A stretch of DNA of 64,000 bases, taken from Eledone cirrhosa. Lineage: Eukaryota. Position 1 is the stretch's first letter. The number at the start of each line of letters is the position of its first letter. The position numbers and the translations under genes were made by a program. The stretch spans positions 26,226,001-26,290,000 of the forward strand of contig OZ024758.1 in NCBI GenBank assembly GCA_964016885.1, in the 5' to 3' direction. Below the pieces are notes generated by a model. It was given only the letters and a program-made list of their open reading frames with translations, was not told the origin of the DNA and did not search any database. Positions 11,301 to 50,241 of this stretch are shown here, one piece after another.

Positions 11301-14300
11301 ACACAACCTCATCACATCAGTTTGTATCAAAATACAATAGACTGTTAGACATCTAGAAATGTTGTACCAACTACATTCATGTGCTCACACAATTAACTAT
11401 TGCTGTGTTTCTTCAAATCCTGTAATTCATCTACAAATTACCAGCCTACAACTACATGGAATTTTATTACAAATTTAAGATGACATGCCTTTAAAATATC
11501 TGAGAGAGCAAAAATATGCTGTTGTACAATGTTGTTTGCAAATTCTTATATCTTTTCTACTGCAGCCATTCATTCCAGTCTCTTGCCAAACAGATTTTTT
11601 TGACTAACCTTAATTAACTCTATTAGTTCAGTAATCAGTTTATTGACAAAGTTGCTATATTTACTATTTTAGTTTGTGTTCAGAAATGCACAGTCTTGAC
11701 AATATCTCCATAAAATGATAGTCCAATTCTTTAGAAAGACCTTAATCACTTCAACAGCAACCTTCTTTCTTAAACTTACAAAATATATCACCTTGACCTA
11801 AGCACATTCTCTCCCTATTAGCCTCAGTTTTAACTCTCCAAAACCCTGATATTTTCTCTATCCTACTCTTGAATGTTTTCTTCTAAGCTATAACATTTCT
11901 TAGTTATCCCTACTTCTAAATATTCTGTGCCGACTAAATAAGCTTTTACAATCTATGACTATAACTTGTTTGTATTTTTAGAACAATAAAGATGATTCAA
12001 GTGCCAAAGATTTAGCTATTATACTGTTTGACACAGCTACTGTGAGATCTGGCTATTTAGTTGCTGATACTGCTGGTTTTGCTGGTAGAGTAGAGAGAAT
12101 GCTTCGATCAAGCCTGAATATTGAAGGTGGTGATATGGTAAGCTGATTTTAATGATATATTTCTTCATTTGTTCGCTAATACACTTAAATTTGTTTTCAA
12201 ACACTAGCGTAAAAGAAAGATTCTGTTTAACCCTTTCATTACCATTGTCTATGATTTTTAATTATTTTGAAAAGAATTGATAATTTGAAGGAATTTAGTA
12301 ATATAACTTTTATTAATCTGGTGTCTGGAACACAAAGGTTCTTGCATAAAATTGATAGATTTTTAGATAAATATTAACACTTTAAAACAGTTTTGTACCA
12401 GAACTAGGCATGGTTTCATGCAGTTTGCAATCAAAATGGTTAATTATATAACACATGGAACTATTTATATTTAGACTCAGTCTAATTTAATGACAGAAAT
12501 TAATCCCAGGATTTTTAAGTGATGTGAATTATTTTTTCTCTTCTTTAAGGTTGAAGAAGAGCCTGAAGAACCTGAAGAACAAGTAGACCAAGAAGAAAAA
12601 GCTGATGCCGTTGATGAGACAGAAGATGAAAAGGAAGAAAAAGTAAGTGAATAGGAAATTTGTGAGTGTATCTGTGAATATACTTTTCATAACCAAACTA
12701 AATAAATACTAGTTTACAAAAGTAGTAAATTTGTAATTATGATGCAATGAGAAGATAGAAATATTTCAGAAAAATCAGTGTTTGTGGTGGGAAAAAAATA
12801 ACCAAATTATATTACACTGATGGTAATCAGTTATGCTAATTAAACATAGGTATTTTATGTTTATATAATAAATTTACATAGGTAGGTTGATTTTCGTGTT
12901 TGGACAGGTCAGTTATTTTCAAATGATATCACAATAATATATTATCTTGAATTTTGAAAAATAGCAATATTGAATTGTCTTTACATTTGGATGTAAGTGG
13001 AATGTTCTAGATCACTGAAATTAATTCTAAGTTTTGAAATTTGATCTCCATTTTACAGAATATTGGTATAGATTTTTTAATAATTACAAAAGTACTTTCA
13101 CTAGATTAAGGACAAAACTGGCAAATTTTGTTTTATTAAAAAAAATAACCATGTTATCACAAGTTTCTTTACTATTTGTTTGCTTTACAATACCATAGCA
13201 TGTTGAACTCTACAAATTATTTGCATGATGTAATTTGCATGAATTTTGTGACAATAGTGTCAATTTTTAACCTTCCAGTTATTGTGTTGCTGCTTTTGCC
13301 TTTGTGTGTGTACCCTTCACTTTGCAAAATTGAAGGGCAGAATTCTTGTTCTTCTTGACAATTACTTATCTATCGCATTGAAGCGTTAATACCACTTGAG
13401 AAATGTTGTTCTCTCTCTTATATAACCCTTTCGTTACCAACCTACTCAATACTGGCCACACCTAGTCATATTTAAACCAAAATATCAACTATATTTTACT
13501 GGATTAGAAATAGCACCTGAATTACCTATATGCCAACAACATAAATTTTGTATTAAGATGTTTTTTTTATATATATATATATATATAATGTTCTACCATT
13601 TTATTAAAATTACGTAAAAATAAATAAGCTTTAAACTTAGTAATAGTGGCTCTGAATGCAATAAATAATGCATCAAGCATAGTATACATGGTAGACATTG
13701 AATTGGGTGTTTTAATTTCTAAGTATGTAAACAATGTTGGGCTGTAATATTGAAAGCAATTTCCAGAAACAATGGAGAGAGGAATAATCTTTAAATATTG
13801 TCAGAAGCAACCAGACCCAATAAGTTATCCTCATAACTCAAAGCCCATTGACTATTTACTTTTATTCCAATTCAAGTATTCTATATAATGTCAGACTAAT
13901 TGCTGTGTATAAGGATGAAATTAGGACATTTTGCCATAAATATAATAATGGGCATTTAGTAGGTTATATAATGCATTGGCAAATAACTTAAAAACTTCAA
14001 CTTTTGTTGAAATATATATCAGATTTTCCCTATATTAAGCTGTAATTAGTTTTGAGACAAATTCCATAATAGATTTATGGAAGAATCTTTTAGTTTGTCA
14101 AAGCGCTGCTTAAATATAAGTTTTATTCAATATATTTGATTGATATAAAAGCCAATCTAAATTCGGATATTTTAGAATATAATTAAGGTTGGATTTTAAT
14201 TAGGAATATAGTAACGAAAGGGTTCATTGCAAATAGGATCTAGATGAATTGAAATTATAGAAATAGTCTAAGTAGTCTATAGATGACATGACTAATAGCT

Positions 14301-14499
14301 ATTCATTCATTATATCTATATATATAAGCATGGTGTGTTTTGACACTTCCACTAACTGTTTTGTTAGACTTTGCTAGTGTGCACACACAAACAAGGCAGA
14401 AAGGCGAAAGGCACACAGAACTGGCTGGCAAAGGATTCTGTGTTTATAACATATTACTTTTCATTTTATCAGGTATCCCATCATTCAGATGAATTATAA
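2174..14499 (+). CDS. HSP90B1: Endoplasmin/GRP94 (HSP90B1) gene, 5'-partial, 13 coding exons in window: 2174-2303, 4084-4195, 4317-4498, 4586-4775, 5086-5163, 5304-5464, 7462-7633, 9815-10060, 10244-10380, 10953-11031, 11982-12137, 12550-12642, 14473-14499
   Basis: All exons are bounded by AG/GT with compatible phases. The spliced translation carries HSP90 hallmarks ([67 protein letters not shown]) and ends in SDEL instead of the cytosolic MEEVD, which identifies the ER paralog. Confidence 0.97.
2588..2795. mobile_element. piggyBac-like MITE (TIR ccctttagcattta)
   Basis: ttaa|ccctttagcatttaaa ... taaatgctaaaggg; same family at 6443-6633, 44232-44450, 62873-63080 and 63457-63857. Confidence 0.75.
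4084..4195 (+). CDS. HSP90B1: HSP90B1 exon ([37 protein letters not shown])
   Basis: tttttag acceptor, AAA|gtaaga donor; HSP90 motif [10 protein letters not shown]. Confidence 0.95.
4317..4498 (+). CDS. HSP90B1: HSP90B1 exon (charged linker TEKVEEP...[18 protein letters not shown])
   Basis: atttag acceptor, AA|gtaagg donor; acidic linker plus KPIWTR motif. Confidence 0.95.
4586..4775 (+). CDS. HSP90B1: HSP90B1 exon ([15 protein letters not shown]...[17 protein letters not shown]...RIK)
   Basis: tttcag acceptor, AAG|gtcagt donor; middle-domain motif [14 protein letters not shown]. Confidence 0.95.
4852..5095 (+). repeat. Tandem array of six ~44-bp copies of the exon-5086 splice acceptor region
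   Basis: Unit (t)n-ctttcaatag|atgtatgtgcatatttaaat; AG dinucleotides end at 4865, 4909, 4953, 4996, 5040 and 5085. Confidence 0.9.
5086..5163 (+). CDS. HSP90B1: HSP90B1 exon ([26 protein letters not shown])
   Basis: ttcaatag acceptor, GTG|gtaagt donor; HSP90 motif YVRRVFI. Confidence 0.95.
5304..5464 (+). CDS. HSP90B1: HSP90B1 exon ([39 protein letters not shown]...)
   Basis: ttacag acceptor, AA|gtaagc donor; catalytic-loop motif DLPLNVSRE. Confidence 0.96.
5678..5860 (+). mobile_element. tRNA-derived SINE (family A)
   Basis: A-box-like tggcagtatcgg, B-box gagttcaaatcc, body gcctttcatccttacggggtcgataaaataaagtaccag, tail tgtgccaaaagtagaaacaatt; more than 10 copies in the window. Confidence 0.85.
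5868..6055 (+). mobile_element. tRNA-derived SINE (family A), tandem second copy
   Basis: Same consensus, directly following the 5678 copy. Confidence 0.85.
6443..6633. mobile_element. piggyBac-like MITE, diverged
   Basis: ttaa|ccctttagtat...aatactaaagg|ttaa; internal sequence similar to 2588-2795. Confidence 0.65.
7462..7633 (+). CDS. HSP90B1: HSP90B1 exon ([21 protein letters not shown]...[14 protein letters not shown]...)
   Basis: tttttag acceptor, GAG|gttaga donor; conserved HSP90 middle domain. Confidence 0.95.
7664..8270 (-). mobile_element. RTE-tailed SINE with an internal 112-bp segment triplicated
   Basis: ggactgt unit starts at 7764, 7876, 7988 and 8101. Confidence 0.8.
9815..10060 (+). 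CDS. HSP90B1: HSP90B1 exon ([47 protein letters not shown]...)
   Basis: tttcag acceptor, CGG|gtaaat donor. Confidence 0.96.
10244..10380 (+). CDS. HSP90B1: HSP90B1 exon ([37 protein letters not shown]...)
   Basis: tttatcag acceptor, GA|gtaagt donor; [10 protein letters not shown] motif. Confidence 0.96.
10953..11031 (+). CDS. HSP90B1: HSP90B1 exon ([26 protein letters not shown])
   Basis: tattcag acceptor, GAG|gtaagt donor; LEINPRH motif. Confidence 0.95.
11982..12137 (+). CDS. HSP90B1: HSP90B1 exon ([25 protein letters not shown]...[17 protein letters not shown])
   Basis: tttttag acceptor, ATG|gtaagc donor; C-terminal dimerisation domain. Confidence 0.95.
12550..12642 (+). CDS. HSP90B1: HSP90B1 penultimate exon, acidic tail ([11 protein letters not shown]...EDEKEEK), phase-0 donor
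   Basis: ttctttaag acceptor, AAA|gtaagt donor; 31 whole codons. Confidence 0.93.
13426..14222. mobile_element. ~800-bp piggyBac-like non-autonomous element in the last HSP90B1 intron
   Basis: 12-bp TIR ccctttcgttac / gtaacgaaaggg, flanked by ataa and ttca (degenerate TTAA). Confidence 0.6.
14473..14499 (+). CDS. HSP90B1: HSP90B1 canonical terminal exon, coding part (VSHHSDEL*)
   Basis: ttttatcag acceptor, phase 0; GTA TCC CAT CAT TCA GAT GAA TTA TAA ends in a KDEL-like retention signal. Confidence 0.92.
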   Translation, partial: VSHHSDEL

Positions 14500-14753
14500 C
14501 CTCATTGAAGAGGAATTATTCAGTTCCCACTAACAAAGTTGGCAGCTGTTGTTCCTGACAAGTGTGAAATTTCCTATTACCACCAAGCACCACCTATCAA
14601 CTACTTTGGAGAATTCCACTAATACTTCATCAAATATTGCTGTCAAATATCATTTCATTTTTGAGAGGACTTTTCTCAGTTTGTTTCTGTATTTTTTTCA
14701 TGTGAAACTGTTATGCCTGAAGTGAATTGAAAGTGTACACATCATTCTTTGTG

Positions 14754-14759
14754 AATAAA
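14754..14759 (+). terminator. Candidate polyadenylation signal for the SDEL isoform
   Basis: AATAAA ~255 nt after the stop, followed by a pyrimidine-rich tract; a second AATAAA lies at ~14998-15003. Confidence 0.5.
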
Positions 14760-16212
14760 TCTTTCTAATTATTCTATCTCTTTTTCTGCCCTCCTCCCCT
14801 GGAGCTTAAAATAATCTGTTTCTTTTATAACAATGATAAAAAAAAAATAGTTTTGCATCTGTATCCATTTTCATTCAACCTTTGAGAACTATTTATAGAA
14901 GCCATTTACTGACAAGAAACCTTTTTTCTTCTATTGTCAAAGCCTTTTGGTTAATATTTTATGTATTTATAGTTTTTAAATATTTTATTTGAATACAAAT
15001 AAACTGGATAAAACTAATTATAATTTTAGTTCCTACTTAATATTTTCATTAAAATAACTGAAAAATGCTTAACTTGAATTTTCTTTTACTGCTCGAGGAA
15101 ATCTTTTCCTACTGAAAGTGTCGGGATCTATTTATAATCTGATTATAGCCAATTTTCAAAATGTACAATTGGGTTTTATGGTTCAGTTTTTTCCCGTCTT
15201 CATTAATGATGTGGATTATATTTAGTTTAAAGTAGGTAAAAGTCAAATTCACTCTTTCTTTTCTTCCTTCTGACCACAAAACATCCTCTTCCAGTAATTT
15301 CCTTGCTAAAAACATCCCAAATATTGTAACTTGATATAATTGCAGTGTTAAATATATTAATTTTAAACATTACTTTAATCCAATTTTGTTTGTGAAGATC
15401 ACTTATTAAAATCATAATCTAAACATGCCAATTAATGTATGCCCTGCAATGCATGCTTTCGCTTTTTTTTTTTTATATGAACAAAGCTTTTTAAAAAATA
15501 TTTGCAAATGGCATTCTGTGCTTAATAATGGTTGATAATGGTTGAATGCAAATACTTTACTTTTTTAAGATGATCAATTGAAAATATAATGACTGGTTTT
15601 ACTTTTCAAAAAACCATATAGAAAAATCAAAAGGCTTGTTTGTAGCTTTAAGAAAATTAAGATTTACTCTGATCTCCTTTTTTTTGTCTTTACTATGTTT
15701 TGGGGGGGGGTTTTTGTTTTGTTTTTTTTAGAACTTTAAGGTTGAGGGAAATAAATGTTTCCTTTAGCCAGCCATGTATATCAGTTTCATAAAGCTGCTT
15801 TTAGGACATATAATGTTTGGTGTGTGTAAACAACAAAGCACAGGAATCAAAAGAAACTGAATATGAGAGGAATCAAATGGAGTGTAAGAGATTGTACTGG
15901 TACAGATAGATGCTGATTGTTGAGTGGAAAGATGCCAGGAGTTCTGAATAAAAGGGAGATCTGGTATAGGAAGGGCAAGAAGACTGACAAAGATAGTGAA
16001 AACATATCTCAGGATGTTGGACCTTGGAGAGAACTCATTTAACCAAAGTGTGCATGGAAAAACTGTAGAAAAGGATGTAGATCAGTTTATTTTATGAGAA
16101 GAGATTAAGGACGGTACCAAGCACAGACTGTTCGGCAAGAAGATGCAATGAATTATAAAACCTTTATTGCAATGAATTATAAAACCTTTATTGTATTACA
16201 TGAATTATTACA

Positions 16213-16405
16213 TGTAGGCAACACGGTAAAAACCTCCCAGCCCCACACTGTAAATGTGGTTGGTGTTAGGAAGGGCATCCAACTGTAGAAAACCCGCCAG
16301 ACAGTCCTATGCGAGCAAGACAACCACTCTTGCCTCAAGTGGGAAAACCCCCGTCCAAACCCATGCAAGCGTGGAACACGGACGCTAAACCTGATGATGA
16401 TGATG
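16213..16405 (+). mobile_element. RTE-tailed SINE fragment, inverted twin of 7667-7858
   Basis: Apparently exact reverse complement of the 7.7-kb copy; the two shadow ORF translations are identical. Confidence 0.85.
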
Positions 16406-17601
16406 AATACAGAAGCCACATAGTACTATGGAGATAGATTAGTGGTGTAACTTGAATGCTCTTATTTCTTTGGTTTTAACCATGTAGAATATATGTAAAC
16501 AGTTGAATGTTATATTCTTTGTACTACGGTGTACATGATACATTTTACTAAGTTGTATTTTTAGATTATTTATGACTAAATGTCTTATATACAAGTGTTC
16601 ATCTTAGAGATTATAAAACACTCTTCTGGACACTTACACTGAAATATGAAGTTAATATTGTATTATTAGTTGAAGTGAAGAAACCAAGTTAAACTACTTA
16701 GCATTTATTTATATTAATATCATTAAAATATCTGCAATAATAAATTGGAATATCTGTGCATGTGTCCAAATGGTTTTCTCGCTTCAGCAGAAATGAGTTT
16801 TGTACTTAAGTATTAATGTAAGTAAATCACAAAATCAAATGTCGTTGCAAATTCATAACATACTCTCATGAAAGAGATTTTTGCCTTTTAATTGTGAGGT
16901 TCACTAAATTGTGCTCACTTTAAATAGAGACTGTAGAATATCTGATAGTAAGAAAACTTTTATTAAAGTGGTACAGGTTTGAATCTTGTTAAAGGTGCTA
17001 TGCTGGGCTGTTTCAATCATTCCTAGCTTATTACTGGTTCATATACCATCTATGCTTAATCCTGGAGTTGGGTGTGTCCATCATTTTGTAGACAAAATGG
17101 CTGTGCAAGTTTGTATCATTTGCATGTCAAAATTGATAGATACCTTACAAAACAGGCATGTAGTATTTTTGCCAGTGTATGATGAAACTAAAAAATATAT
17201 AACTTGTGTAATATATGCTATGGAAAGTTTCTGCTACTAAAGTTAATATCAAGGCAATATCAACTGTAAATAGTTACTGTAATATTTCAAATCACTATGG
17301 TCTATGAATTCAGCATTTTAATTCCTCAACACTAAAAATGATTTAATATTCTTTCTTTAACTTAAAAAAAAATCTCATTCTTTCCAATTTTCTCTGACTG
17401 CATCAAGAATAAACTAAAGGTTTTTTTGCAATAGATTTAATACAAAACGATTATGATAATGTAATTTTTTTTTCTTGGAGTTCAGTTGGTCTGTTGCCAA
17501 GGGGATCTTTACCAATTTTGTAGAATCTTCCTACCCATTGGGCTTGACCAAGATGGCTACATATATACTCAAAGCTTTTCTTCATTCAACTAGTTTCGCT
17601 A

Positions 17602-17636
<35 letters not shown>

Positions 17637-17965
17637 CGAGACACGGTCACACGACCAACCTTGCCTCAAGTGGGACAACTCCCGTCTAACCCATGCTAGC
17701 GTGAAAGATGGACGTTAAACGAAGATGATTATATATATACGTGGAAGATAAAAGTTAAATGATGATGATACATGACAAGTGAAAATGTCTCTTACTTAAA
17801 ACCAACAATGCCACAAGCTATGACTATTTCAGTTATCTCCGATCTTTACCTTCTCTAAAGGAATATATCTCAATCTTGAGAAACCTGCTACAGTATCCCA
17901 TTCCCAAGGACAACCTTAATCCTGCTAACTACTCAACTTTTGCTGGTTCCACCACTGTTTAGAAG

Positions 17966-18293
17966 TCATCATCATCACCATTTTACGTCCGTTCTGCCAT
18001 GCTAGCATGGGTTGTCCTGTTGTGGGCAGTGTCCGGTCAGCTGACCTTTGTCTTGCTCATATGGAAACTGATTCTGGCTTGATTTCTACAGCTGGATGCC
18101 CTTCATAACACCCTCATTTACAGTGGAATGATAGGGACCCCAGTCCTATCATCTCATTTCTACAGCTGAGTAAACTGGAGCAATGTGAAATAAAGTGTCT
18201 TGCTCAAGGAAACAACACATCACCTGGTCCAAGAATTGAACTCACAACCTTTTGATTGCAAGCCAAATGCTCTAACCACTAAGCCATGTGCCT
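17966..18293 (-). mobile_element. tRNA-headed SINE (family B) with RTE-type tail
   Basis: Minus strand starts gcacatggcttagtggttagagc...gtgagttcaattc, then ccttgagcaagacactttatttcac; homologous to 45238-45631 and 52948-53250. Confidence 0.75.
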
Positions 18294-19479
18294 TTATCAA
18301 TAGCTTTCCCTTAGACAGTATCCCTTTTCAATATGGCTTCCAATAACCTGGAACCTACTCTCCTCCATAACTCATTGGGGGTCCCATATCTTTGATATTT
18401 GGCAATACCAATGAACAAAGTTTTTGATTGATACAAAAGTTTAAGATACTTATTTAAGTGCTTCATTGGTACCTCCTCTTTGATTTTGAGGTTTTCTGAC
18501 GCAGTCTACCAACTTTGCTATGCCTGTAGATTGTCATCTTACACATACTATTACTCTTCAATCACTGCTCAAGTCTTTGACAAAATACAATTAAAACCTT
18601 CAAATAAGTGCTAGACCTTATAATCTGTGATTCTTTCTGGGTGAAGCAATATAGTCAAACCAGTGAATATTAACCATGCTGTATGTAACTTGAACTTGAA
18701 AATAATACTGGTGCAACCATTTTGTTTACATAACTGTAGATGTGAAAACATATCAAAAGTGATAATTATAACTTTTGTTTGGTTAGCAAAAGTATCGTGT
18801 TGAACAGTTAGCTAGTCAAATAATTTAAACACAACATACCGGAGGATTAAAAAAGCATGGCAAAATCAGTATCTTCATGCACTCTACAGCTTTAATCCAA
18901 TTATGTATGTTACAAAAAATGTTGTTACTATGCCAGAAAAAGTAACGAACAGTACGATTGCTTTTGGTTATAAGCTCAGATAAATTACCCAAACATGATA
19001 CTCTTTGCCCTTCTTGTTTGAATAATCGTGGTTTAACTACATAACACAGCTAAAATAACATCCTAATCTTCTTTAGGGCTAGAAAATACTTCACCTTTGA
19101 CCTCCATTGCTGACCCACAAAGCTCTGGTGTTACTCTTCGCTCTCTCTCAAGCTCACACATGCGCACACTATCCACAAGGAACCTAGACAAATATTGCCA
19201 GACTTGTACTGGCTCAATGAAAAGGCTCCTTACAAAATTATTTCAATGAACACATGACATGTTAGCCCTAAGCCTATTTTACAATGGGAAGAAGCTATCA
19301 AAACAAGTTCTTAAGACTCAAGTTTCCTTTCTGAGGTTACCTCAAATGATGAGAAATTATCTTAGAATAGAATCCTTTTACTCTTAATACTCTACATTCT
19401 TCATTGTATGCTACCAAACTTGACTTTGATTTTTATTACTCTTAGACATAGCTTGAAATTCTCATGACTCATTTATACA

Positions 19480-21600
19480 GACCTATGAGGATGAGAGGAG
19501 GTTAAGAGACAGGTTTCGAAAGACTTGAAGAAAGGAGTAGTAAAGTAAAATATCAAATAACTAGATGTTAGCTGTACGCAGTATGCAGAGAAGCTGAAAG
19601 CAAGAGGTATGCCAAGTTTTTGTGTCAAGAGAATTGGGTGTGAGATGTTCCAGATTGCACAGAAGTGTGACAGGTAATCAAGATGTTGAGGAAATGAGCT
19701 GTTCAGAATGACAGTGATACACTTACCCTCACAAATGTGAAGAAGAATCTTGGAAAAGTTGCTAAATGCATTAGAGGAAAGGGCAGTTCCCCAAGTTGAC
19801 CCAGCTACTGAAGTTGAAATGACCATTAATGAAAGCAGTTGTCCTGTTATGGATAGTCACTGAAATGCTGAAAATATCTGGCAAAGTAGGGCTCACTTGT
19901 ATTGTCAACTAGGTAGTTCATGAGGGTGTCATACCCAATGACTAGTGGTGCAGTACTATTTCCAATTGCTACAAGGGAAAGAGATGCTTTAGAAAGAAGC
20001 AAATAGAGAGGAATCAGACTAGTGGATTAAGTTATGAAAGTCTGATTAGGATGAGATACAGGTTGGGCTACTACTGATACTTTGTTCAGGGTGAGACAAC
20101 TATTAGAGAAAGTCTTAACTAAGAATAAGCCACTACCTAGCATTCATTGTTTAGAAGAACTTTAACAAAATATCAAACTCTTTCGCCTTTTGTGGTTTTT
20201 AAGAAAATGATGTAGATGAAGGGCTTCAAAGAGCCGTACAAAGATGTCATGTATGAAGCGTTCAAGGATTGGTTCTCTGACCCGCTACTGTTTTTTATAC
20301 CATGGTCCAGCTTCATATTGGACAATCTTTCCATGGACTGGTAGTTACACATGTGTTATTTAAGTGCATTTCAATAAAGAGCAATTTATTATAGATGAAT
20401 ATTGAATATTTAAACAAATTGTTTTTAAATTGAAGTCCAATATTCAATTTATCTATCATATAATTTTAAACATGTTTATTATTTCTTTGCGACCCGGTAG
20501 CAAATGATCCGCGTCCTGGCAGTTGGGGACCTCTGCTTTAGGCCATTACTGAAGAGTTTAAGACTGATTGTCAATAGAAACTCTTGTGTGTTGATCCCTT
20601 TTTATAGCTAAATCTAAAGTTCTAAAGAAGAAAATTCCAGGCATGGAAACAAAATCTAGTATGAAAAGGATTGACTAAAGTTTTACTAAGTTGGGAAAAA
20701 GACGAAATCCCTTTTGCCATCAGGGAAAAGGCCATGCTTGATAGGCAGAAAAAGAGTTAGTAGTACAGTGTATAATATACAATGTAAAATATAGGTACAC
20801 AAGAGGATTGCAGGCAGGCTAACAGAAGATACATTTTGTATGTGGCAGATGCATAGGATAGTTAGAAATCAGAGCACCTGTAAAATAAAACATTCCAATA
20901 CTTAGAAGACTCCGTAGAAATAGTAAATAGCTTCTGTGACCTAGTCAGTATGATGAACTGGATGGAAAATTTAGAATTTTAGAACTTTATTACCTTTGAT
21001 GACAACAAATGGATTCTCTCTCCAAACAAAAAAAGATTGTATGATTCTTGTTTATATAATAGTTTCTTATTTAGGCACAAGGCCAACAATTTGGAGAAAG
21101 AGGAAAGTTGATTAGATCAACCCCAATACATTACTTGGGGCTATATTTTATGAATCCTGGAAAGCTAACCTCAACGAGATTTGAACTCAGAACATAAAGT
21201 GCCGTGACTATATGCTACAAAGCATGTTATCTGATTCTCTAATGATACTGCCAATCCACCACCCTATTCTTGTTTATATAATGCAATGCTGCCTGGTATT
21301 GAATGCAGGGGATGAGAAAAGGCGAGCAAAAAAAAAATCAATGTGAACATGCAACACAGGATGTGTAATGTTAGTGTGCATGAATGATGAAACACTAATG
21401 ATTTGAGAGAAAAACTAGATATTGCATGCAAGATGGTTAAATAAAGACAAGTTGGGTGTTCCATGTTGAAGTAAACCAAGGAAAAGGTAGGCTTGAGAAG
21501 AAGTGGTAAAAGCTGAGCCACACAAAAGAACAAGTGGTGAGACACTGTTTTGGAGAAAACCCATCTGACCCAACATAAAAATGATGATGATATGATAATT
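19480..21600 (+). mobile_element. Heavily degenerate RTE-clade LINE remnant with nested insertions
   Basis: Decayed RTE RT motifs (IPND.W..STI.NCYKG.DALE..YRGI.L) at ~19930-20020; RTE-like 3' tail gatgatgat at ~21580; many stops and frameshifts. Confidence 0.6.
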
Positions 21601-22594
21601 ATATACATATAGTAATACAGAAGACCCGCCTTCCCTTACTCTGTAAAGTTATGTTGGTATCACAAAAACATCCAGCCCAGACTGTAAAGTGGTCATGTAG
21701 GTGTCAACAAAAAGCACCCAGCACACACTGTAAATGTGATTGGCATTAGGAAGGACATCCAGCTAGAAACAGTCCTATATGAGTGAGACACGATCACCCG
21801 ACCCAACTTGCCTCAAATGGGACACACCCATCTAACTCATGCTAGCATGGAAGATAGAGATTAAACGATGATGATGATGATATATATGCTGTAAAGTAGT
21901 TGGTATTAGGAAGGGCATCTAACCATAGAAAGCTTGCCAAACAAAGGGTTGGAGGACCCTTCAGTTTGTGTCAAAAGACACAACTTCTCTGCACTCGATA
22001 GAATGTATGACCATACATAAAAGAGATGCAGACCTCCTCAGCCTGTCTGGGAGGTCAGTAGCGCCACTTCAGTACTGACTTGGTCTATGTTGACTCGTCT
22101 AACACTTGCTAGTAGTGAAAGCAGAGTTTAGATGATGATGATGATGATGAATCAATACTACTAATAATAACCACCTTTATAAGAAAGAGAACTCAATACA
22201 TAAGTAAAGTGTGCATCACTGTAGATAAAATGTTTGTTTTTCAACCACATGGTTTTTTTTTTAATTCTATCCTGCTGACTAATACTTTGTGAGGGAATTT
22301 CATAGATGGAAGCTGTAAAGAAACTTGTAATGTGTGTGTATGTGTGTATGTGTTTGCCTCCCTGTGTAGTTTCACTTTACATTTCACACTGCTTACACAG
22401 GCAGTGACATTTGTTTATGTCCCACATAAACAATGTCCTTCAGTTCAGCACTTCAACGTGTGAGGATCAGTACCTTAATTAAAAAATGAGGGTTGGTATT
22501 AGGTTGGACATCCAACCATAGAATACTGCTTTAAAAGATTCTTATCCAACTCATGCCAACTTGAAAAGGGAGACAAAATATAATTATTATTATT

Positions 22595-22781
22595 TGGATT
22601 GGCAATATCGGTAGAGGGTTAGACGCCATGCTTTGCAGCATAGAGTTACAGCCCTCTACGGTTTGAGTTCAAATCCCGCTGAGGTTAACTTTGCCTTTCA
22701 TCCTTACGGGGTCAATAAAATAAAGCACCAGTAATGCACTGAGATAATTGCTGGCCTTGTGCCAAAAGTAGAAACAATTAT
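22595..22781 (+). mobile_element. tRNA-derived SINE (family A)
   Basis: Matches the family A consensus. Confidence 0.85.
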
Positions 22782-26200: not shown

Positions 26201-26759
26201 AAATAATCAAGATTGTAAGATAACTAATTTCATATATTTGCATTTCAACCATTACACCTCCCTATAAAAAACAAAAACAAACATAGCTCAACAAGGAAAT
26301 GTCCAAATGGTTGCTAGAATTGCTAGAAATAGCAACCAGCATCTCTTAACCTGTTGACTACTGCGTATATTTTACACAACTACAGTTACTGTGCCAGGTT
26401 ATTTTTTCGTAAAATGACTATCTTTTTAAACAAACATTTATTAACACATATCTGAATGATTGACAAATATCACACCAATAAACGAGTTATCTCGTCCATG
26501 GCACTGGAATGCATATATGTTAGGATGAGTTATCTCATTTACAGCAATGAAGGGGCTAAACAATAGCCTTCTGTCATAAAAAAAAGAAAGAACTCATAAC
26601 ATAATGTAGTCCTACATATCCCTAAAACGTTGGGATAGTCATAACTGGAACAACTTTAAACAATTGTCTGTTTGTCTTAGAGTTAACCTACAGTCACACA
26701 ATGAGTACAAAGATAATATAAACAAAATATGATATAATACATAATATAGAAGTATATAC

Positions 26760-27290
26760 TGACGAAATCAGCAGTAGTGGAGGGTGTTCTGAAAGTACAG
26801 TAGCCAGAGTCAGAACGGCATGGAAAAAGTTCAGAGAGTTTATACCGCTGTTGACCACAAAAGGTTTCTCTCTAAAAATGAAAGGCAGATTGTATGATGC
26901 TTGTATACGAACAGCAATGCTACATGGCAGTGAGACATGGGCACTGCGTGCAGAGGACCTGCGTGCAGAGGACCTGCGTAGACTGGAAAGGAACGAAGCA
27001 TGCATTCTCCGTTGGATGTGTAATAGTAATATACGTGAACGGCAAAGCATAAATGAACTAAGTGAGAAATTAGGAATAAGAGGGATCAGATGCTGTTTAC
27101 TCAAGAGAAGACTACGTTGGTATGGCCACGTGATGCGCATGAAAGACGACAGCTGTATAAAAAAGTGCAGGGCGATCAAAAGTGATGGTAGTTATGGAGT
27201 AGGTAGATGCAGAAAAACCTGGGACGATCTGATAAATTCCGACCTTACACACTTGCACCTCTCTAACACAATGTCACTGGACGAGATCTT
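26760..27290 (+). mobile_element. RTE-clade LINE ORF 3' fragment
   Basis: ARVRTAWKKFRE...KGRLYDACIRTAMLHGSETW...RRLRWYGHVMR...GRCRKTW is the typical RTE C-terminus; includes an in-frame 15-bp duplication (RAEDL twice). Confidence 0.85.
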
Positions 27291-27299
27291 TAGCGCTAA

Positions 27300-27640
27300 G
27301 CAGTAATACAGAAGACCCGCCTTGCCTATGTACAAAGCGAAACCTACAGTCAGTAGGCATCTCTTAACCAAATATACACCCCAATCCACTACCCCTACCC
27401 TATCCTCCCACTCCCACCAACACCACCCTCTCTCTATAAAATTGGTACCACAACATCCAGTCCAAATAAATGAGATTGAGATCGAGATTGTGTAGGTGTC
27501 ACGAGAAAAAAAACACACAGTCCATGCTGTAATGTGGCCGTGTAGGTAACACGGTAAAAAGTTCCCAGTTCCACACTGTAAATGTGGTTGGTGTTAGGAA
27601 GGGCATCCAGCCGTAGAAAACCTGCCAGATAGTCCTATAT
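27300..27640 (+). mobile_element. RTE-tailed SINE family copy (3'-truncated)
   Basis: Reverse complement of most of the 502-900 copy. Confidence 0.75.
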
Positions 27641-28047
27641 GCATTGGTATTTCAAAACCACACCATCTAAATATAATGTGTTGACTAGCAGCCTCGACTT
27701 ATAAATGGGGCTTCAATTTTTCCTATTTCCCAGAAATAAAATTGGGGTAGACTTATATTCGGATTGGCATATATTCGAATATATAGGGAAAGTTTGACAT
27801 CATGTCTGAGAAAGCATACCTGTTAAATTACTAGCAGAGACTATTGACAGGCATTAGACAGTGCCGATATACACCACTTTAGTTATAAGGCCAGGCATTG
27901 CGAAGGATCTACAGTAAAAACAAAGGGAACAGTAGAACATTACAAAGTGAAAATCCAACCATTTAAACCCACCTGCATACACATGATAAAAAAAGGTAAC
28001 ATACATAAAATTGAGATGATGCAAGTGTTTCCTTCTCTTATTTTTAG

Positions 28048-31000
28048 GGACATATTTTTTCTAGAAGAAAATTACTTTCGATTGATGAGAAACAGAGCTC
28101 CCCAAAACTGAAGGAAGACAGTGATGGTGATGGTATCCCTGACCACCTAGAGGGAGACAGTGATGGTGATGGTATCCCTGACTACAAAGAAGATGCTGAT
28201 GGTGATGGTATCCCAGATTATCTAGATAATGATGATGATGGTGATGGTATCCCTGACCACCTAGAGGGAGACAGTGATGGTGATGGTATCCCTGACTACA
28301 AAGAAGATGCTGATGGTGATGGTATCCCAGATTATCTAGATGATGATGATGATGGTGATGGTATACCAGATCATCTGGAGGGAGACAGTGATGGTGATGG
28401 TATCCCTGACTACAAAGAAGATGCTGATGGTGATGGTATCCCAGATTATCTAGATAATGATGATGATGGTGATGGTATCCCTGACCACTTAGAGGGAGAC
28501 AGTGATGGTGATGGTATCCCTGACTACAAAGAAGATGCTGATGGTGATGGTATCCCAGATTATCTAGATGATGATGATGATGGTGATGGTATACCAGACC
28601 ATCTGGAGGGAGACAGTGATGGTGATGGTATCCCTGACTACAAAGAAGATGCTGATGGTGATGGTATCCCAGATTATCTAGATAATGATGATGATGGTGA
28701 TGGTATCCCTGACCACCTAGAGGGAGACAGTGATGGTGATGGTATCCCAGACTACAAAGAAGATGCTGATGGTGATGGTATCCCAGATTATCTAGATAAT
28801 GATGATGATGGTGATGGTATCCCTGACCACCTAGAGGGAGACAGTGATGGTGATGGTATCCCAGACTACAAAGAAGATGCTGATGGTGATGGTATCCCAG
28901 ATTATCTAGATGATGATGATGATGGTGATGGTATACCAGACCATCTGGAGGGAGACAGTGATGGGGATGGTATCCCTGACCACCTAGAGGGAGACAGTGA
29001 TGGTGATGGTATCCCAGACTACAAAGAAGATGCTGATGGTGATGGTATCCCAGATTATCTAGATAATGATGATGATGGTGATGGTATACCAGACCATCTG
29101 GAGGGAGACAGTGATGGTGATGGTATCCCTGACTACAAAGAAGATGCTGATGGTGATGGTATCCCAGATTATCTAGATGATGATGATGATGGTGATGGTA
29201 TCCCTGACCACCTAGAGGGAGACAGTGATGGTGATGGTATCCCAGACTACAAAGAAGATGCTGATGGTGATGGTATCCCAGATTATCTAGATAATGATGA
29301 TGATGGTGATGGTATACCAGATCATCTGGAGGGAGACAGTGATGGTGATGGTATCCCAGACTACAAAGAAGATGCTGATGGTGATGGTATCCCAGATTAT
29401 CTAGATAATGATGATGATGGTGATGGTATACCAGATCATCTGGAGGGAGACAGTGATGGTGATGGTATCCCAGACTACAAAGAAGATGCTGATGGTGATG
29501 GTATCCCAGATTATCTAGATAATGATGATGATGGTGATGGTATCCCAGACCATCTGGAGGGAGACAGTGATGGTGATGGTATCCCAGACTACAAAGAAGA
29601 TGCTGATGGTGATGGTATCCCAGATTATCTAGATAATGATGATGATGGTGATGGTATCCCAGACCATCTGGAGGGAGACAGTGATGGTGATGGTATCCCA
29701 GACTACAAAGAAGATGCTGATGGTGATGGTATCCCAGATTATCTAGATGATGATGATGATGGTGATGGTATCCCTGACCATCTGGAGGGAGACAGTGATG
29801 GTGATGGTATCCCAGACTACAAAGAAGATGCTGATGGTGATGGTATCCCAGATTATCTAGATAATGATGATGATGGTGATGGTATCCCAGACCATCTGGA
29901 GGGAGACAGTGATGGTGATGGTATCCCTGACCACCTAGAGGGAGACAGTGATGGTGATGGTATCCCTGACTACAAAGAAGATGCTGATGGTGATGGTATC
30001 CCAGATTATCTAGATGATGATGATGATGGTGATGGTATCCCTGACCACCTAGAGGGAGACAGTGATGGTGATGGTATCCCAGACTACAAAGAAGATGCTG
30101 ATGGTGATGGTATCCCAGATTATCTAGATAATGATGATGATGGTGATGGTATCCCTGACCACCTAGAGGGAGACAGTGATGGTGATGGTATCCCAGACTA
30201 CAAAGAAGATGCTGATGGTGATGGTATCCCAGATTATCTAGATGATGATGATGATGGTGATGGTATACCAGATCATCTGGAGGGAGACAGTGATGGTGAT
30301 GGTATCCCAGACTACAAAGAAGATGCTGATGGTGATGGTATCCCAGATTATCTAGATGATGATGATGATGGTGATGGTATACCAGATCATCTGGAGGGAG
30401 ACAGTGATGGTGATGGTATCCCAGACTACAAAGAAGATGCTGATGGTGATGGTATCCCAGATTATCTAGAGGATGATGATGATGGTGATGGTATACCAGA
30501 TCATCTGGAGGGAGACAGTGATGGTGATGGTATCCCTGACTACAAAGAAGATGCTGATGGTGATGGTATCCCAGATTATCTAGATGATGATGATGATGGT
30601 GATGGTATACCAGATCATCTGGAGGGAGACAGTGATGGTGATGGTATCCCAGACTACAAAGAAGATGCTGATGGTGATGGTATCCCAGATTATCTAGATA
30701 ATGATGATGATGGTGATGGTATCCCTGACCACCTAGAGGGAGACAGTGATGGTGATGGTATCCCAGACTACAAAGAAGATGCTGATGGTGATGGTATCCC
30801 AGATTATCTAGATGATGATGATGATGGTGATGGTATACCAGATCATCTGGAGGGAGACAGTGATGGTGATGGTATCCCAGACTACAAAGAAGATGCTGAT
30901 GGTGATGGTATCCCAGATTATCTAGATGATGATGATGATGGTGATGGTATACCAGATCATCTGGAGGGAGACAGTGATGGTGATGGTATCCCAGACTACA

Positions 31001-34000
31001 AAGAAGATGCTGATGGTGATGGTATCCCAGATTATCTAGAGGATGATGATGATGGTGATGGTATACCAGATCATCTGGAGGGAGACAGTGATGGTGATGG
31101 TATCCCTGACTACAAAGAAGATGCTGATGGTGATGGTATCCCAGATTATCTAGATGATGATGATGATGGTGATGGTATACCAGATCATCTGGAGGGAGAC
31201 AGTGATGGTGATGGTATCCCTGACTACAAAGAAGATGCTGATGGTGATGGTATCCCAGATTATCTAGATAATGATGATGATGGTGATGGTATCCCTGACC
31301 ACCTAGAGGGAGACAGTGATGGTGATGGTATCCCAGACTACAAAGAAGATGCTGATGGTGATGGTATCCCAGATTATCTAGATGATGATGATGATGGTGA
31401 TGGTATCCCAGACCATCTGGAGGGAGACAGTGATGGTGATGGTATCCCAGACTACAAAGAAGATGCTGATGGTGATGGTATCCCAGATTATCTAGATGAT
31501 GATGATGATGGTGATGGTATCCCAGACCATCTGGAAGTTGACAGTGATGGTGATGGTATCCCAGATTCACTTGATACAGATAGTAATGTTGATGGTATGC
31601 CCCAGAAAATTTCACCCATAAAAGATACGGATGGTGATGGTATACCTGATCACCTTGACGACGATGCCAATGGAAACAACATACCTGACAAACTGGAGGT
31701 AGATAGCGATGGTGATGGTATATTGGACTACAAGGAAGACAGCGATGGTGATGGTATTCCTGATTATTTAGACTGTGATGCCGATGGTAACGGTATACCA
31801 GATAAATTAGAAAAGGACAGATACGGAAATAAAATACTGGAGTACAAAAAGGACACTGATGGTGATGGTATCCCAGATTATCTAGATGATGATGCTGATG
31901 GTGATGGTATACCAGACCATCTGGAGGGAGACAGTGATGGTGATGGTATCCCAGACTACAAAGAAGATGCTGATGGTGATGGTATCCCAGATTATCTAGA
32001 TGATGATGATAATGGTGATGGTATACCAGATCATCTGGAGGGAGACAGTGATGGTGATGGTATCCCAGACTACAAAGAAGATGCTGATGGTGATGGTATC
32101 CCAGATTATCTAGATGATGATGATGATGGTGATGGTATACCAGATCATCTGGAGGGAGACAGTGATGGTGATGGTATCCCAGACTACAAAGAAGATGCTG
32201 ATGGTGATGGTATCCCAGATTATCTAGATGATGATGATGATGGTGATGGTATCCCTGACCACCTAGAGGGAGACAGTGATGGTGATGGTATCCCAGACTA
32301 CAAAGAAGATGCTGATGGTGATGGTATCCCAGATTATCTAGATGATGATGATGATGGTGATGGTATCCCTGACCACCTAGAGGGAGACAGTGATGGTGAT
32401 GGTATCCCAGACTACAAAGAAGATGCTGATGGTGATGGTATCCCAGATTATCTAGATGATGATGATGATGGTGATGGTATCCCTGACCACCTAGAGGGAG
32501 ACAGTGATGGTGATGGTATCCCAGACTACAAAGAAGATGCTGATGGTGATGGTATCCCAGATTATCTAGATGATGATGATGATGGTGATGGTATCCCTGA
32601 CCACCTAGAGGGAGACAGTGATGGTGATGGTATCCCAGACTACAAAGAAGATGCTGATGGTGATGGTATCCCAGATTATCTAGATGATGATGATGATGGT
32701 GATGGTATCCCTGACCACCTAGAGGGAGACAGTGATGGTGATGGTATCCCAGACTACAAAGAAGATGCTGATGGTGATGGTATCCCAGATTATCTAGATG
32801 ATGATGATGATGGTGATGGTATACCAGATCATCTGGAGGGAGACAGTGATGGTGATGGTATCCCAGACTACAAAGAAGATGCTGATGGTGATGGTATCCC
32901 AGATTATCTAGATGATGATGATGATGGTGATGGTATACCAGATCATCTGGAGGGAGACAGTGATGGTGATGGTATCCCAGACTACAAAGAAGATGCTGAT
33001 GGTGATGGTATCCCAGATTATCTAGATGATGATGATGATGGTGATGGTATCCCTGACCACCTAGAGGGAGACAGTGATGGTGATGGTATCCCAGATTACA
33101 AAGAAGATGCTGATGGTGATGGTATCCCAGATTATCTAGATGATGATGATGATGGTGATGGTATACCAGACCATCTGGAGGGAGACAGTGATGGTGATGG
33201 TATCCCAGACTACAAAGAAGATGCTGATGGTGATGGTATCCCAGATTATCTAGATGATGATGATGATGGTGATGGTATACCAGATCATCTGGAGGGAGAC
33301 AGTGATGGTGATGGTATCCCAGACTACAAAGAAGATGCTGATGGTGATGGTATCCCAGATTATCTAGATGATGATGATGATGGTGATGGTATACCAGATC
33401 ATCTGGAGGGAGACAGTGATGGTGATGGTATCCCAGACTACAAAGAAGATGCTGATGGTGATGGTATCCCAGATTATCTAGATGATGATGATGATGGTGA
33501 TGGTATCCCTGACCACCTAGAGGGAGACAGTGATGGTGATGGTATCCCAGATTACAAAGAAGATGCTGATGGTGATGGTATCCCAGATTATCTAGATGAT
33601 GATGATGATGGTGATGGTATCCCTGACCATCTGGAGGGAGACAGTGATGGTGATGGTATCCCAGACTACAAAGAAGATGCTGATGGTGATGGTATCCCTG
33701 ATTATCTAGATGATGATGATGATGGTGATGGTATCCCTGACCACCTAGAGGGAGACAGTGATGGTGATGGTATCCCAGACTACAAAGAAGATGCTGATGG
33801 TGATGGTATCCCAGATTATCTAGATGATGATGATGATGGTGATGGTATACCTGACCATCTGGAGGGAGACAGTGATGGTGATGGTATCCCAGACTACAAA
33901 GAAGATGCTGATGGTGATGGTATCCCAGATTATCTAGATGATGATGATGATGGTGATGGTATCCCTGACCACCTAGAGGGAGACAGTGATGGTGATGGTA

Positions 34001-37000
34001 TCCCAGACTACAAAGAAGATGCTGATGGTGATGGTATCCCAGATTATCTAGATGATGATGATGATGGTGATGGTATACCAGATCATCTGGAGGGAGACAG
34101 TGATGGTGATGGTATCCCAGACTACAAAGAAGATGCTGATGGTGATGGTATCCCAGATTATCTAGATGATGATGATGATGGTGATGGTATACCAGATCAT
34201 CTGGAGGGAGACAGTGATGGTGATGGTATCCCAGACTACAAAGAAGATGCTGATGGTGATGGTATCCCAGATTATCTAGATGATGATGATGATGGTGATG
34301 GTATACCAGATCATCTGGAGGGAGACAGTGATGGTGATGGTATCCCAGACTACAAAGAAGATGCTGATGGTGATGGTATCCCAGATTATCTAGATGATGA
34401 TGATGATGGTGATGGTATACCAGATCATCTGGAGGGAGACAGTGATGGTGATGGTATCCCAGACTACAAAGAAGATGCTGATGGTGATGGTATCCCAGAT
34501 TATCTAGATGATGATGATGATGGTGATGGTATACCAGATCATCTGGAGGGAGACAGTGATGGTGATGGTATCCCAGACTACAAAGAAGATGCTGATGGTG
34601 ATGGTATCCCAGATTATCTAGATGATGATGATGATGGTGATGGTATACCTGACCATCTGGAGGGAGACAGTGATGGTGATGGTATCCCAGACTACAAAGA
34701 AGATGCTGATGGTGATGGTATCCCAGATTATCTAGATGATGATGATGATGGTGATGGTATACCTGACCATCTGGAGGGAGACAGTGATGGTGATGGTGTC
34801 CCAGACTACAAAGAAGATGCTGATGGTGATGGTATCCCAGATTATCTAGATGATGATGATGATGGTGATGGTATACCTGACCATCTGGAGGGAGACAGTG
34901 ATGGTGATGGTATCCCAGACTACAAAGAAGATGCTGATGGTGATGGTATCCCAGATTATCTAGATGATGATGATGATGGTGATGGTATCCCAGACCATCT
35001 GGAGGGAGACAGTGATGGTGATGGTATCCCTGACTACAAAGAAGATGCTGATGGTGATGGTATCCCAGATTATCTAGATGATGATGATGATGGTGATGGT
35101 ATCCCTGACCACCTAGAGGGAGACAGTGATGGTGATGGTATCCCAGACTACAAAGAAGATGCTGATGGTGATGGTATCCCAGATTATCTAGATGATGATG
35201 ATGATGGTGATGGTATCCCTGACCACCTAGAGGGAGACAGTGATGGTGATGGTATCCCAGACTACAAAGAAGATGCTGATGGTGATGGTATCCCAGATTA
35301 TCTAGATGATGATGATGATGGTGATGGTATCCCAGACCATCTGGAGGGAGACAGTGATGGTGATGGTATCCCTGACTACAAAGAAGATGCTGATGGTGAT
35401 GGTATCCCAGATTATCTAGATGATGATGATGATGGTGATGGTATACCTGACCATCTGGAGGGAGACAGTGATGGTGATGGTATCCCAGACTACAAAGAAG
35501 ATGCTGATGGTGATGGTATCCCAGATTATCTAGATGATGATGATGATGGTGATGGTATACCAGATCATCTGGAGGGAGACAGTGATGGTGATGGTATCCC
35601 AGACTACAAAGAAGATGCTGATGGTGATGGTATCCCAGATTATCTAGATGATGATGATGATGGTGATGGTATACCAGATCATCTGGAGGGAGACAGTGAT
35701 GGTGATGGCATCCCAGACTACAAAGAAGATGCTGATGGTGATGGTATCCCAGATTATCTAGATGATGATGATGATGGTGATGGTATACCTGACCATCTGG
35801 AGGGAGACAGTGATGGTGATGGTATCCCTGACTACAAAGAAGATGCTGATGGTGATGGTATCCCAGATTATCTAGATGATGATGATGATGGTGATGGTAT
35901 ACCTGACCATCTGGAGGGAGACAGTGATGGTGATGGTATCCCAGACTACAAAGAAGATGCTGATGGTGATGGTATCCCAGATCACCTGGATAATGATGAT
36001 GATGGTGATGGTATCCCTGACCACCTAGAGGGAGACAGTGATGGTGATGGTATCCCAGACTACAAAGAAGATGCTGATGGTGATGGTATCCCAGATTATC
36101 TAGATAATGATGATGATGGTGATGGTATCCCTGACCACCTAGAGGGAGACAGTGATGGTGATGGTATCCCAGACTACAAAGAAGATGCTGATGGTGATGG
36201 TATCCCAGATTATCTAGATGATGATGATGATGGTGATGGTATCCCAGATCACCTGGATGATGATGGCGAAGCTGTTCTTGGTCACATTGTTTTAGACAGT
36301 GATGGTGATGGTATTGCTGATTATTTGAAAGATACTGATGGTGATGGTATCCCTGACTATCTAGATGAAGATGATGATGGTGATGGTATCCCAGATACTT
36401 TAGATGATGATAAAGATGGTGATGGTATTCTTGACTACATCGACCTTGATTTAGATGGTGACGGTATTACTGATGCCAATAAAGATCACACTGTTGACAT
36501 GGAAACAGACACTGATGGTGATGGTATCCCGGACTATCTTGATGATGACGATGATGGTGATGGCATCCCTGATGCAGATGAAGAAACTGATGGTGATGGT
36601 GATGGTATACCTGACCATTTAGATGATGATAGTGATGGTGATGGCATTCCAGATAAATTGGAAGGGGATTCTGATGGGGATGGTATCCCAGACTACAAGG
36701 AAGATGCTGATGGTGATGGTATCCCTGACTATCTAGATGATGATGATGATGGTGATGGTATCCCAGATAGTGAAGAACAAGCTGATTCTTGTGAGGGTGA
36801 TTCTTGTGAGCAGACAGAAGATGAAGTTCCTAGTCTAATCTCCCAAATAGTTTCAGTAGTAGAGGAAGTGAAATCTAAAATGCCTCCATTAATTGTTCTT
36901 GAAGAAGATGATGGAAAGGAAAAAGAAGCTGATATTTTTGCAAATGTCAAGGAAATTGAACAGCTTGATCATGAAGAAAAGATTGACTTACTCTCAGTTC

Positions 37001-37070
37001 TAGAACAGGCTTCATCTCACACATATAAACAATTCATGGACTCTTTCACCACATCAGATGAGAAAGATCG
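28048..37070 (+). CDS. Giant 9,023-bp exon encoding ~3,007 aa of Asp/Gly-rich DxDGDGIPD (thrombospondin type-3-like, Ca2+-binding) repeats; probable alternative 3' exon of HSP90B1
   Basis: Strong acceptor gtgtttccttctcttatttttag|GGA, whose TAG is itself an in-frame stop. The frame is open from 28048 to TAA 37072-37074 and is the same frame as the listed 31597 ORF, with no Met before 31597. Differences between repeats are almost all synonymous in this frame. A CG|gtaaat donor sits at 37071. Confidence 0.88.
28117..31566 (+). repeat. Coding tandem array 1, 114-bp unit (LEGDSDGDGIPDY-KEDADGDGIPDY-LD[D/N]DDDGDGIPDH), ~30 units
   Basis: Period of 114 bp is directly visible (ctagagggagac at 28147 and 28261); two extra 39-bp submodules near 28950 and 29900. 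Confidence 0.95.
31861..36260 (+). repeat. Coding tandem array 2, same 114-bp unit, ~38 units
   Basis: Near-identical units, almost exclusively the DDDDD variant; separated from array 1 by a ~300-bp block of diverged repeats. Confidence 0.95.
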
Positions 37071-38194
37071 GTAAATGAGTTTATATCTGTCTTGATTATA
37101 TCAAGAAATAGTGAAGTTTAAAAGTAAAACTATTAAGATTCTGATATGATGACATTCATTTATCAGCATCGAACGCTAAATGGAATTATCAACTTTTTAT
37201 TTCGGTTCCTTGCAAAACATCTGGATTTCCTGGAAACATGTTAAAAACTCTCTAGTGATGATTTTGTTTCGCAAAATGATAAGAAAGTGGAAACCTTTCA
37301 AGAAATCAAAATATATTTTGAAAAGATCTTCTTGTCTAGTGCTTTTACCAACATTATTTGAACCAATTGATTCAACATGATATCAAAGTAAGATATGATC
37401 AAGAATCTTCATAAAGAGAACAAATATGTTTATGTAACATTGTACACACACATACACACACATATATATATATATACACACACACATATGTATATAAGTG
37501 TGTATATTTATATGTATATACAGAGCATAATATATATTTATTTATTAGTGGGTATTCCATTGTTATGTTACCAACTAGTAATTTTGCCACAACATGGTTC
37601 TTCCAGTAATGCTCCTTTTTATACTTTTATATAATGATTGTTAAAATAAGAATGGAGGTACAAATGGAATCTTTTTTACTGTTTAAATTGTGTCAAACAT
37701 TCTCATTGGCCATTATTTTGTGTTGTTTCTGCATCTTGGTATGATGATATGATGTATATATGTGAGAATATAATTGTTTCTACTTTTGGCACATGGCCAG
37801 CAATTACCCAGTATATTACTGGTACTTTATTTTATGTGAGAACATAATAATAATGAAAATGATTGTGTACAGTGCTCAGGTGCACTACAACTCATCAAAG
37901 GTGCATGTATAGTACCTAGAATAATGTACAAATGTCAGGAAGTGAAACAGATCAATTCTGTGTGCGTAGCTATTTGGGGGTAAAAAAGGTAACAGAAAGC
38001 ATTTGATTATTTATAAATTAAAACTTTATCTTAGAGTTACCATTCAAGGGTATATTGTTATTTTCCAAAAAAACTAATATGTATTGCCAGATTTATATAC
38101 AATCATCTTTGTAATTTTCTTCATGTATGATTATATCAATGGAATTTATTCATGAGTGAATAATAATAATATCATAATATTTATTGATATTCAG

Positions 38195-38360
38195 TTTGTT
38201 TGCAAGAAAACAGCCTCATAAACACCACGAGTTAGATGACCAACATCATCCCTTTGTTCCAGTGGCGGTAGCTGAGAGAAAACAATCGACAATTGTTTCA
38301 GAGTTTTATTCCTTATCGAGATTGTCTATTCTCGTCACTGATACCCACTGGAACTGCTGA
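38195..38360 (+). CDS. Candidate terminal exon of the giant-repeat transcript ((R)LFARKQPHKHHELDDQHHPFVPVAVAERKQSTIVSEFYSLSRLSILVTDTHWNC*)
   Basis: gatattcag acceptor. Phase 2 matches the 37070 donor (CG|T = Arg). 54 stop-free codons in a GC-richer island within very AT-rich DNA. Confidence 0.6.
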
Positions 38361-50201: not shown

Positions 50202-50241
50202 AATATGGTTTTATAAATATAGTTTCCATTTGTTAATATCG

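Follow-up and report, generated by a model that had tools for sequence, protein, structure and literature searches.

Calsequestrin, sarcalumenin, HRC and the ASPH-derived junctate are acidic lumenal calcium buffers, and two of these, sarcalumenin and junctate, are alternative splice products of genes that have another function. Thrombospondin and COMP carry TSP3 repeats, which are extracellular and disulfide-linked, each TSP3 motif binding about two Ca2+ ions, and a Cys-free version of the same DxDxDGxxDxxD/E motif is found in bacteria. GRP94, the chaperone encoded by HSP90B1, is a C-terminally joined dimer. The present analysis concerns a window of 64,000 nucleotides from Eledone cirrhosa (assembly GCA_964016885.1, contig OZ024758.1, positions 26,226,001 to 26,290,000), in which HSP90B1 is followed at a distance by a 9-kb exon of TSP3-type repeats; positions below are those of the window, on the plus strand unless stated. 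The explanation that appears to suit the locus best, and which as a whole is rather probable, is that HSP90B1 transcripts can finish with either of two last exons. With the normal exon the product would be a GRP94 that carries SDEL at its end and is retained in the endoplasmic reticulum (ER); with the distant exon it would be a precursor of ~3,790 residues, to be cut at an RRKLL motif with release of a predicted lumenal calcium store.

Sixteen HSP90B1 exons, four upstream of the window and twelve inside it, join without a stop and arrive in phase 0 at the donor at 12642. The internal coding exons (2174-2303, 4084-4195, 4317-4498, 4586-4775, 5086-5163, 5304-5464, 7462-7633, 9815-10060, 10244-10380, 10953-11031 and 11982-12137) were placed by tblastn with Lymnaea and fish GRP94. 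Taken exon by exon, identity to Lymnaea GRP94 is 55-89% over most exons, the protein being nearer to that of this snail than to that of fish, and the HSP90 ATPase, middle and C-terminal domains are present. The penultimate exon (12550..12642) encodes the acidic tail and ends at the phase-0 donor that is the proposed branch point, whilst the normal last exon (14473..15632) encodes VSHHSDEL and its stop at 14473-14499 and continues as 3' untranslated region (UTR). The best of six candidate signal-peptide exons, with 17 hydrophobic codons and a phase-1 GTAAGT donor, lies 13.2 kb upstream of the window; with it the predicted lengths are 792 residues for the normal form and ~3,790 for the long form, which counted from exon 2 has 3,774 residues and a mass of 404 kDa. 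Of the sequencing runs compared, X1 was taken as RNA-like, as it holds the GT..AG joints 12136>12549 and 12642>14473, both missing from X2-X4, and these joints represent the normal splice. The gene has in common with GRP94 the whole chaperone, an SDEL last exon and a normally spliced form, besides a candidate signal peptide, and would depart from it in the proposed second form, which would have no retention signal and a 3,008-residue extension.

The giant alternative terminal exon (28048..37074) contains an open reading frame (ORF) of 3,008 codons at 28048-37071, with TAG directly 5' of it as part of the acceptor and TAA at 37072-37074. Its product would have a mass of 317 kDa, a net charge of about -1,190 and no transmembrane segment, and is composed of 1,116 Asp and only 3 Cys among its residues. 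The earliest Met is codon 1,184, and the frame starts in the phase required by the donor at 12642. The first step of the proposed route, that is both last exons, their compatible phase and the normal splice in the RNA-like data, is a matter of observation. An earlier note on this DNA had already pointed to the stop directly before 28048, the lack of an early Met, the matching phase-0 donor of HSP90B1 and the want of a convincing signal-peptide exon between the two, all of which held up. It had also called the 28048 acceptor strong, which was not borne out: the acceptor scores 7.5 against 6.0-15.1 in known acceptors (a range that includes one site scored one base off), ranks 12th of the 811 AGs between 15633 and 28200, and is ordinary rather than exceptional.

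Most of the exon is a Cys-poor TSP3-type repeat array (28117..36768), in which 221 DxDxDGxxDxxD/E motifs are arranged mostly as a 38-residue three-unit super-repeat; over the ORF, DxD/NxD/NGxxDxxD/E occurs 221 times and DGDG(I/V)(P/L)D 219 times. Among 65 complete 38-residue units the variant codons comprise 12 that are synonymous and 5 that change the residue, the frequent variants being nearly all synonymous, so that the repeat is taken to be coding and not a plain satellite. Pfam TSP_3 (58 bits against a cut-off of 25) and TSP3_bac stand above their cut-offs in all three exon segments scanned, and the same scans of these segments gave no EGF domain, no C-terminal lectin-like domain and no calsequestrin domain (PF01216). 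The sole PDB match of the repeats is COMP (3FBY), which is weak (E 0.002). The motif and the Pfam families are thus those of thrombospondin/COMP and of the bacterial Cys-free repeats, but the exon differs from thrombospondin/COMP in having almost no Cys, none of the flanking domains and ~220 copies. From the known behaviour of the TSP3 motif it is very probable that each repeat chain binds Ca2+ ions in the hundreds. Within the array the only degenerate block lies at 31500-31900 (ORF residues ~1,160-1,290), and units 5' of it often end in N whereas those 3' of it nearly always end in D, which suggests that two sub-arrays expanded separately. Of 745 candidates 150 were scored, and within these the near-identical array was confined to the HSP90B1 locus, with weaker matches on contigs C4 and C1; the match at C4:22985042-22985623 on the minus strand falls in a 308-codon open frame that is probably a true thrombospondin exon.

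The evidence that links the two parts comes from long 'endoplasmin' models in flukes and in Lymnaea. Two homologue searches, in which ~8,000 candidates were scored within length limits so that missing taxa mean little, were run with the ORF end (proteins of 1,654-5,264 amino acids; 3,840 matches, 120 of them listed) and with the GRP94 part (914-2,909 amino acids; 79 HSP90-family matches). HSP90 domains are present in five of the 120 listed repeat-region matches, all five being trematode models, and a DGxPD extension stands behind GRP94 in 13 of the 79, namely 12 fluke models and Lymnaea CAL1526239, with at least five motifs in 12 of the 13. When cluster look-ups are included, 18 trematode species as well as Lymnaea have a KDEL-less GRP94, R(R/K)L(L/M) and DGxPD repeats, in the order proposed for the window (for example Smp_030300.3/.4, which is XP_018651354 and is labelled 'Putative thrombospondin' in the database, KAG5444747, KAA3676735 and CAL1526239). 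In one model from each of 15 species, R(R/K)L(L/M/F) lies without exception 127-199 residues past WSGNMER and ahead of the first repeat, and the proposed splice would put it at 138 in the window. In all 14 fluke models R(R/K)L(L/M) is present twice. The first 13 residues of the exon, GHIFSRRKLLSID, align gaplessly and in register with the Lymnaea post-GRP94 junction, SCAFCNRKLMSAD, giving the joint-highest score of 51,317 positions downstream of 12642; against the fluke profiles they rank third for the second site and 52nd for the first. A CxxCR-like stretch at 25570, which is top of the first-site profile, was rejected as a linker exon, since it falls within an old dispersed repeat with 41 matches and has a phase-1 donor.

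In Schistosoma mansoni both forms are on record. The short form has 796 amino acids and ends in KNEL (AAF66929) or KDEL (a Logan variant, 49 contigs), and the long forms part from it after residue 785, replacing only its 11-residue tail; as nothing but the KNEL/KDEL tail is exchanged, this is the same last-exon swap as that proposed at 12642. The three-unit super-repeat, a pattern picked after the sequences had been inspected, is found in 9 of 41 proteins with GRP94 and repeats and in none of 223 other DGxPD-rich proteins, and the full-length fluke models have it in common with the window exon. There are differences too: the fluke extensions have up to ~70 repeats with basic linkers between them and many isoforms, whereas the window has ~220 near-perfect repeats in one exon, and the CxxC ahead of the motif in fluke models is missing from the window exon. 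A search of representatives gave no GRP94 signature among its 150 proteins, and two Atlas searches returned only generic HSP90 or TSP3 clusters (<0.9). Taken together, the homologues make it likely that 12642 is joined to 28048, and equally so that the long form is an HSP90B1 isoform with an alternative last exon that spiralians have conserved.

Other GRP94 models were also seen to be extended. In 20 of 55 matches checked, teleost 'endoplasmin' models of 1,163-1,272 amino acids run from a KDEL-less GRP94 into the RIIa and cNMP domains of a PKA type II regulatory subunit, 18 of the 20 with a conserved short linker between the two; the same last intron seems here to have been exploited a second time and independently, which would bring a regulatory subunit of PKA into the lumen of the ER. 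Glandiceps talaboti XP_077985225 has a GRP94 with an internal KDEL followed by a CxxC and a calcium-binding EGF protein, which we take to be CRELD-like; its CxxCR start is similar to the CPTCRR at the junction in flukes, and the model may be a read-through annotation.

A number of points weigh against the spliced fusion. The trematode and Lymnaea long forms are known as database models only; the 18 flukes belong to one clade, in which a single annotation may have spread by copying, and Lymnaea was the only other mollusc in which a model turned up. In an older annotation of S. mansoni, in the portion of the PMC4723143 supplement that covers 92 of 203 places and a further 18 for isoforms.1 and.2, these two isoforms have the extension but lack GRP94 peptides,.1 being offset by 785 residues. 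Within that same portion, the well-scoring peptides of the miracidium proteome all lie in the GRP94 part, and extension peptides do no better than reversed-sequence matches. In the window itself, a 3,485-nt X1 contig of HSP90B1 passes unbroken through 12642 into 14473 and covers 14473-15632, another X1 contig spans 27612-28120 unspliced across the 28048 acceptor, and a 12642>28048 joint is not among the X1 joints listed. As X1 reads as assembled contigs, from which rare variants get dropped, the missing joint does not exclude the splice. The proposal of a fusion in the earlier note is therefore strengthened by the layout in 18 flukes and Lymnaea and by the two S. mansoni forms, although its predicted junction is missing from the X1 joints listed.

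An alternative is a separate downstream transcript of the repeat exon, driven by a promoter and begun by a first exon of its own, which gene predictors then fuse to HSP90B1 as a conserved neighbour. The missing X1 joint and the extension-only S. mansoni isoforms speak for it, and the Glandiceps model, in which GRP94 with its KDEL inside is fused to an EGF-containing neighbour, shows that read-through models of this kind do occur. Even so this explanation is improbable, given that the motif lies at a similar distance behind the GRP94 tail in every one of the 15 models, that the S. mansoni long forms lose exactly the KDEL exon and that the repeat exon starts in the phase fitting the 12642 donor. 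Nor did 15633-28047 yield a convincing phase-0 signal-peptide first exon. The candidate of highest hydrophobicity in phase 0, 19829-19885, was rejected with its weak donor (4.5) and an X1 contig crossing it unspliced; bins that have no X1 cover (18428-19515 and 24956-25499) were not counted against candidates within them. The start of the repeats is covered by X1 contigs, and a depth of ~100-150 per copy over the repeats and the first bases of the exon would fit expression starting near 28048, but was not counted as contig depth is a poor measure.

If 12642 is indeed joined to 28048, the fate of the long form may be read from the start of the exon. The RRKLL motif (28063..28077) matches the junction motif of the snail and fluke models and is a predicted site-1 protease (S1P) cut of the RxLL type; the conserved motif spans exon residues 6-10, of which RKLL makes up residues 7-10. 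The available part of PMC11231238 defines the S1P motif as RXXL or RX(L/I/V)Z and places S1P cleavage in the Golgi, and RKLL satisfies this definition as a sequence match. Since RKLL fits the motif and is the sole feature kept in otherwise divergent linkers, the long form is read as a precursor. A subtilase of the site-1 type, slightly favoured on these grounds, would cut after RKLL and part a KDEL-less GRP94 from a repeat chain of ~316 kDa, the GRP94 part supplying promoter, signal peptide and escort. The product of ~3,800 residues foreseen in the earlier note agrees in size with the predicted precursor, but the S1P-type motif had been overlooked and suggests that the precursor is cleaved.

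The splice could alternatively be real and the fusion stay intact, held in the ER by pairing with SDEL-bearing GRP94 and so coupling the calcium store to the chaperone. The C-terminal joining of the GRP94 dimer would allow this, and an ER-held protein would be out of reach of an S1P that acts in the Golgi (PMC11231238, available part). This is nonetheless unlikely, as the conservation of R(R/K)L(L/M) from flukes to molluscs in divergent linkers, and its doubling in the flukes, are hard to explain without cleavage. A cleaved precursor is thus preferred; cleavage, calcium binding and a lumenal location are properties predicted for the long form from its sequence.

The 3' end of the long form may take one of two shapes. 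The earlier note had spliced 37070 to 38195 and ended the protein in THWNC, and a possible further exon (38195..38360; 54 codons, GC 0.42 against 0.28-0.31 in its flanks) is retained as a candidate. That ending was not confirmed: the 37070 donor scores 3.0 against 6.0-13.3 in known donors and the 38195 acceptor 5.3, both being weak, and the ORF can end simply at TAA 37072-37074. Of the words sampled from 36780-38700, a fraction of 0.88 occurs in X1, against a maximum of ~0.41 without 37071-38194, a figure in which UTR, pre-mRNA and splicing are not separable. As the earlier note had proposed, the long form would have no KDEL; neither possible end has a KDEL-type C-terminus or other retention signal, or a membrane segment, and a search reaching 103 kb gave no downstream exon in phase 2 whose retention signal was convincing. 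The array is followed by a non-repeat acidic C-terminal tail (36769..37074) with predicted helices, the first at about 36826-36879, in a low-confidence AlphaFold model (pLDDT 52 over the last 224 residues). The tail is weakly similar to an amphipathic helix conserved at the C-terminus of the fluke models (profile rank 6 of 51,302), and for its last 101 residues the 617 candidates of 178-2,000 amino acids included no relative.

The least certain step is the destination of the released chain. With about even chances, it would act as a high-capacity lumenal buffer in the ER or sarcoplasmic reticulum (SR) or in secretory granules, perhaps mainly in muscle. Its likeness to calsequestrin, sarcalumenin, HRC and junctate would lie in this predicted role, as Pfam scans gave no likeness in sequence, and it differs from calsequestrin-type buffers in being a TSP3-type wire on a chaperone gene, probably freed by proteolysis. 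A calsequestrin search of the genome gave no match, but its controls were equally without signal. The same steps up to calcium binding would serve a chain that is secreted as a calcium-chelating matrix or biomineral protein, in statolith, mucus or calcareous concretions. Such a chain, for which a Golgi-type cleavage motif, the lack of retention signal and membrane segment, and the extracellular TSP3 repeats of thrombospondin/COMP can be cited, is less likely than a lumenal one. The layout is kept in shell-less flukes, and this makes the statolith-matrix role put forward in the earlier note less probable, although flukes do form calcareous concretions. In the available part of a lophotrochozoan biomineral proteomics study (PMC13425148) there is no mention of endoplasmin or HSP90 and one PF02412 sequence. 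A peptide from a whole-earthworm hydrolysate, one of five in the available part of PMC11547318, matches the last repeat of the exon at 12 of 13 residues and hints that annelids may have repeats of this type at the protein level. Together with the shell-less flukes, this whole-animal peptide is the reason for favouring a lumenal store over a secreted matrix.

Other features were noticed around the gene. An 835-codon LINE-type retroelement frame, containing an endonuclease start, lies inside an HSP90B1 intron at window-relative -3407 to -903, and a neighbouring gene in convergent orientation has a low-complexity exon of 776 codons at 69441-67114 on the minus strand. Just downstream of the possible last exon, 39330-40290 is a tandem array of ~1 kb with an AT-rich unit of ~19-20 bp, and long near-perfect inverted repeats, foldback or MITE-like, were seen by eye at 42040-42560 and 49930-50230.

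The literature searched, with subscription journals and bioRxiv supplements outside it, yielded no description of a KDEL-less GRP94 plus repeat isoform, in line with the earlier note, but the isoform does exist in database models; among other molluscs, where the note had proposed to look for DGDGIPD exons downstream of HSP90B1, the length-limited searches gave one model with a DGxPD extension, Lymnaea CAL1526239. Smp_030300 is listed as endoplasmin in PMC9559072, its extension passing without comment in the available part. Judged from sequence, the fluke and Lymnaea models probably reflect a wider spiralian pattern that is present in databases but unexplained, and the long form is probably a case in which an ER gene gains a calcium-buffer product through an alternative last exon, most likely with cleavage as a further step. 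More tentatively, the main lumenal calcium store of spiralians may, since before flatworms and molluscs split, have been a cleavable TSP3 wire carried by GRP94, doing the job that calsequestrin does in vertebrate muscle and grown here to ~220 repeats in one exon. If the proposed route is right, a housekeeping chaperone gene would give molluscs and flatworms a second product of ancient origin, filed until now as odd 'endoplasmin' or 'putative thrombospondin' models. This product would be a candidate for calcium buffering in the ER or muscle SR of these animals and a site-1 protease substrate of a new kind. Calcium storage would be tied to the stress-inducible HSP90B1 promoter. Calcium handling in flukes is the target of praziquantel, and the fluke extension has no counterpart in the normal GRP94 form of the host. 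Moreover, RNA interference or proteomics directed at 'endoplasmin' in molluscs and flatworms may mix two products.

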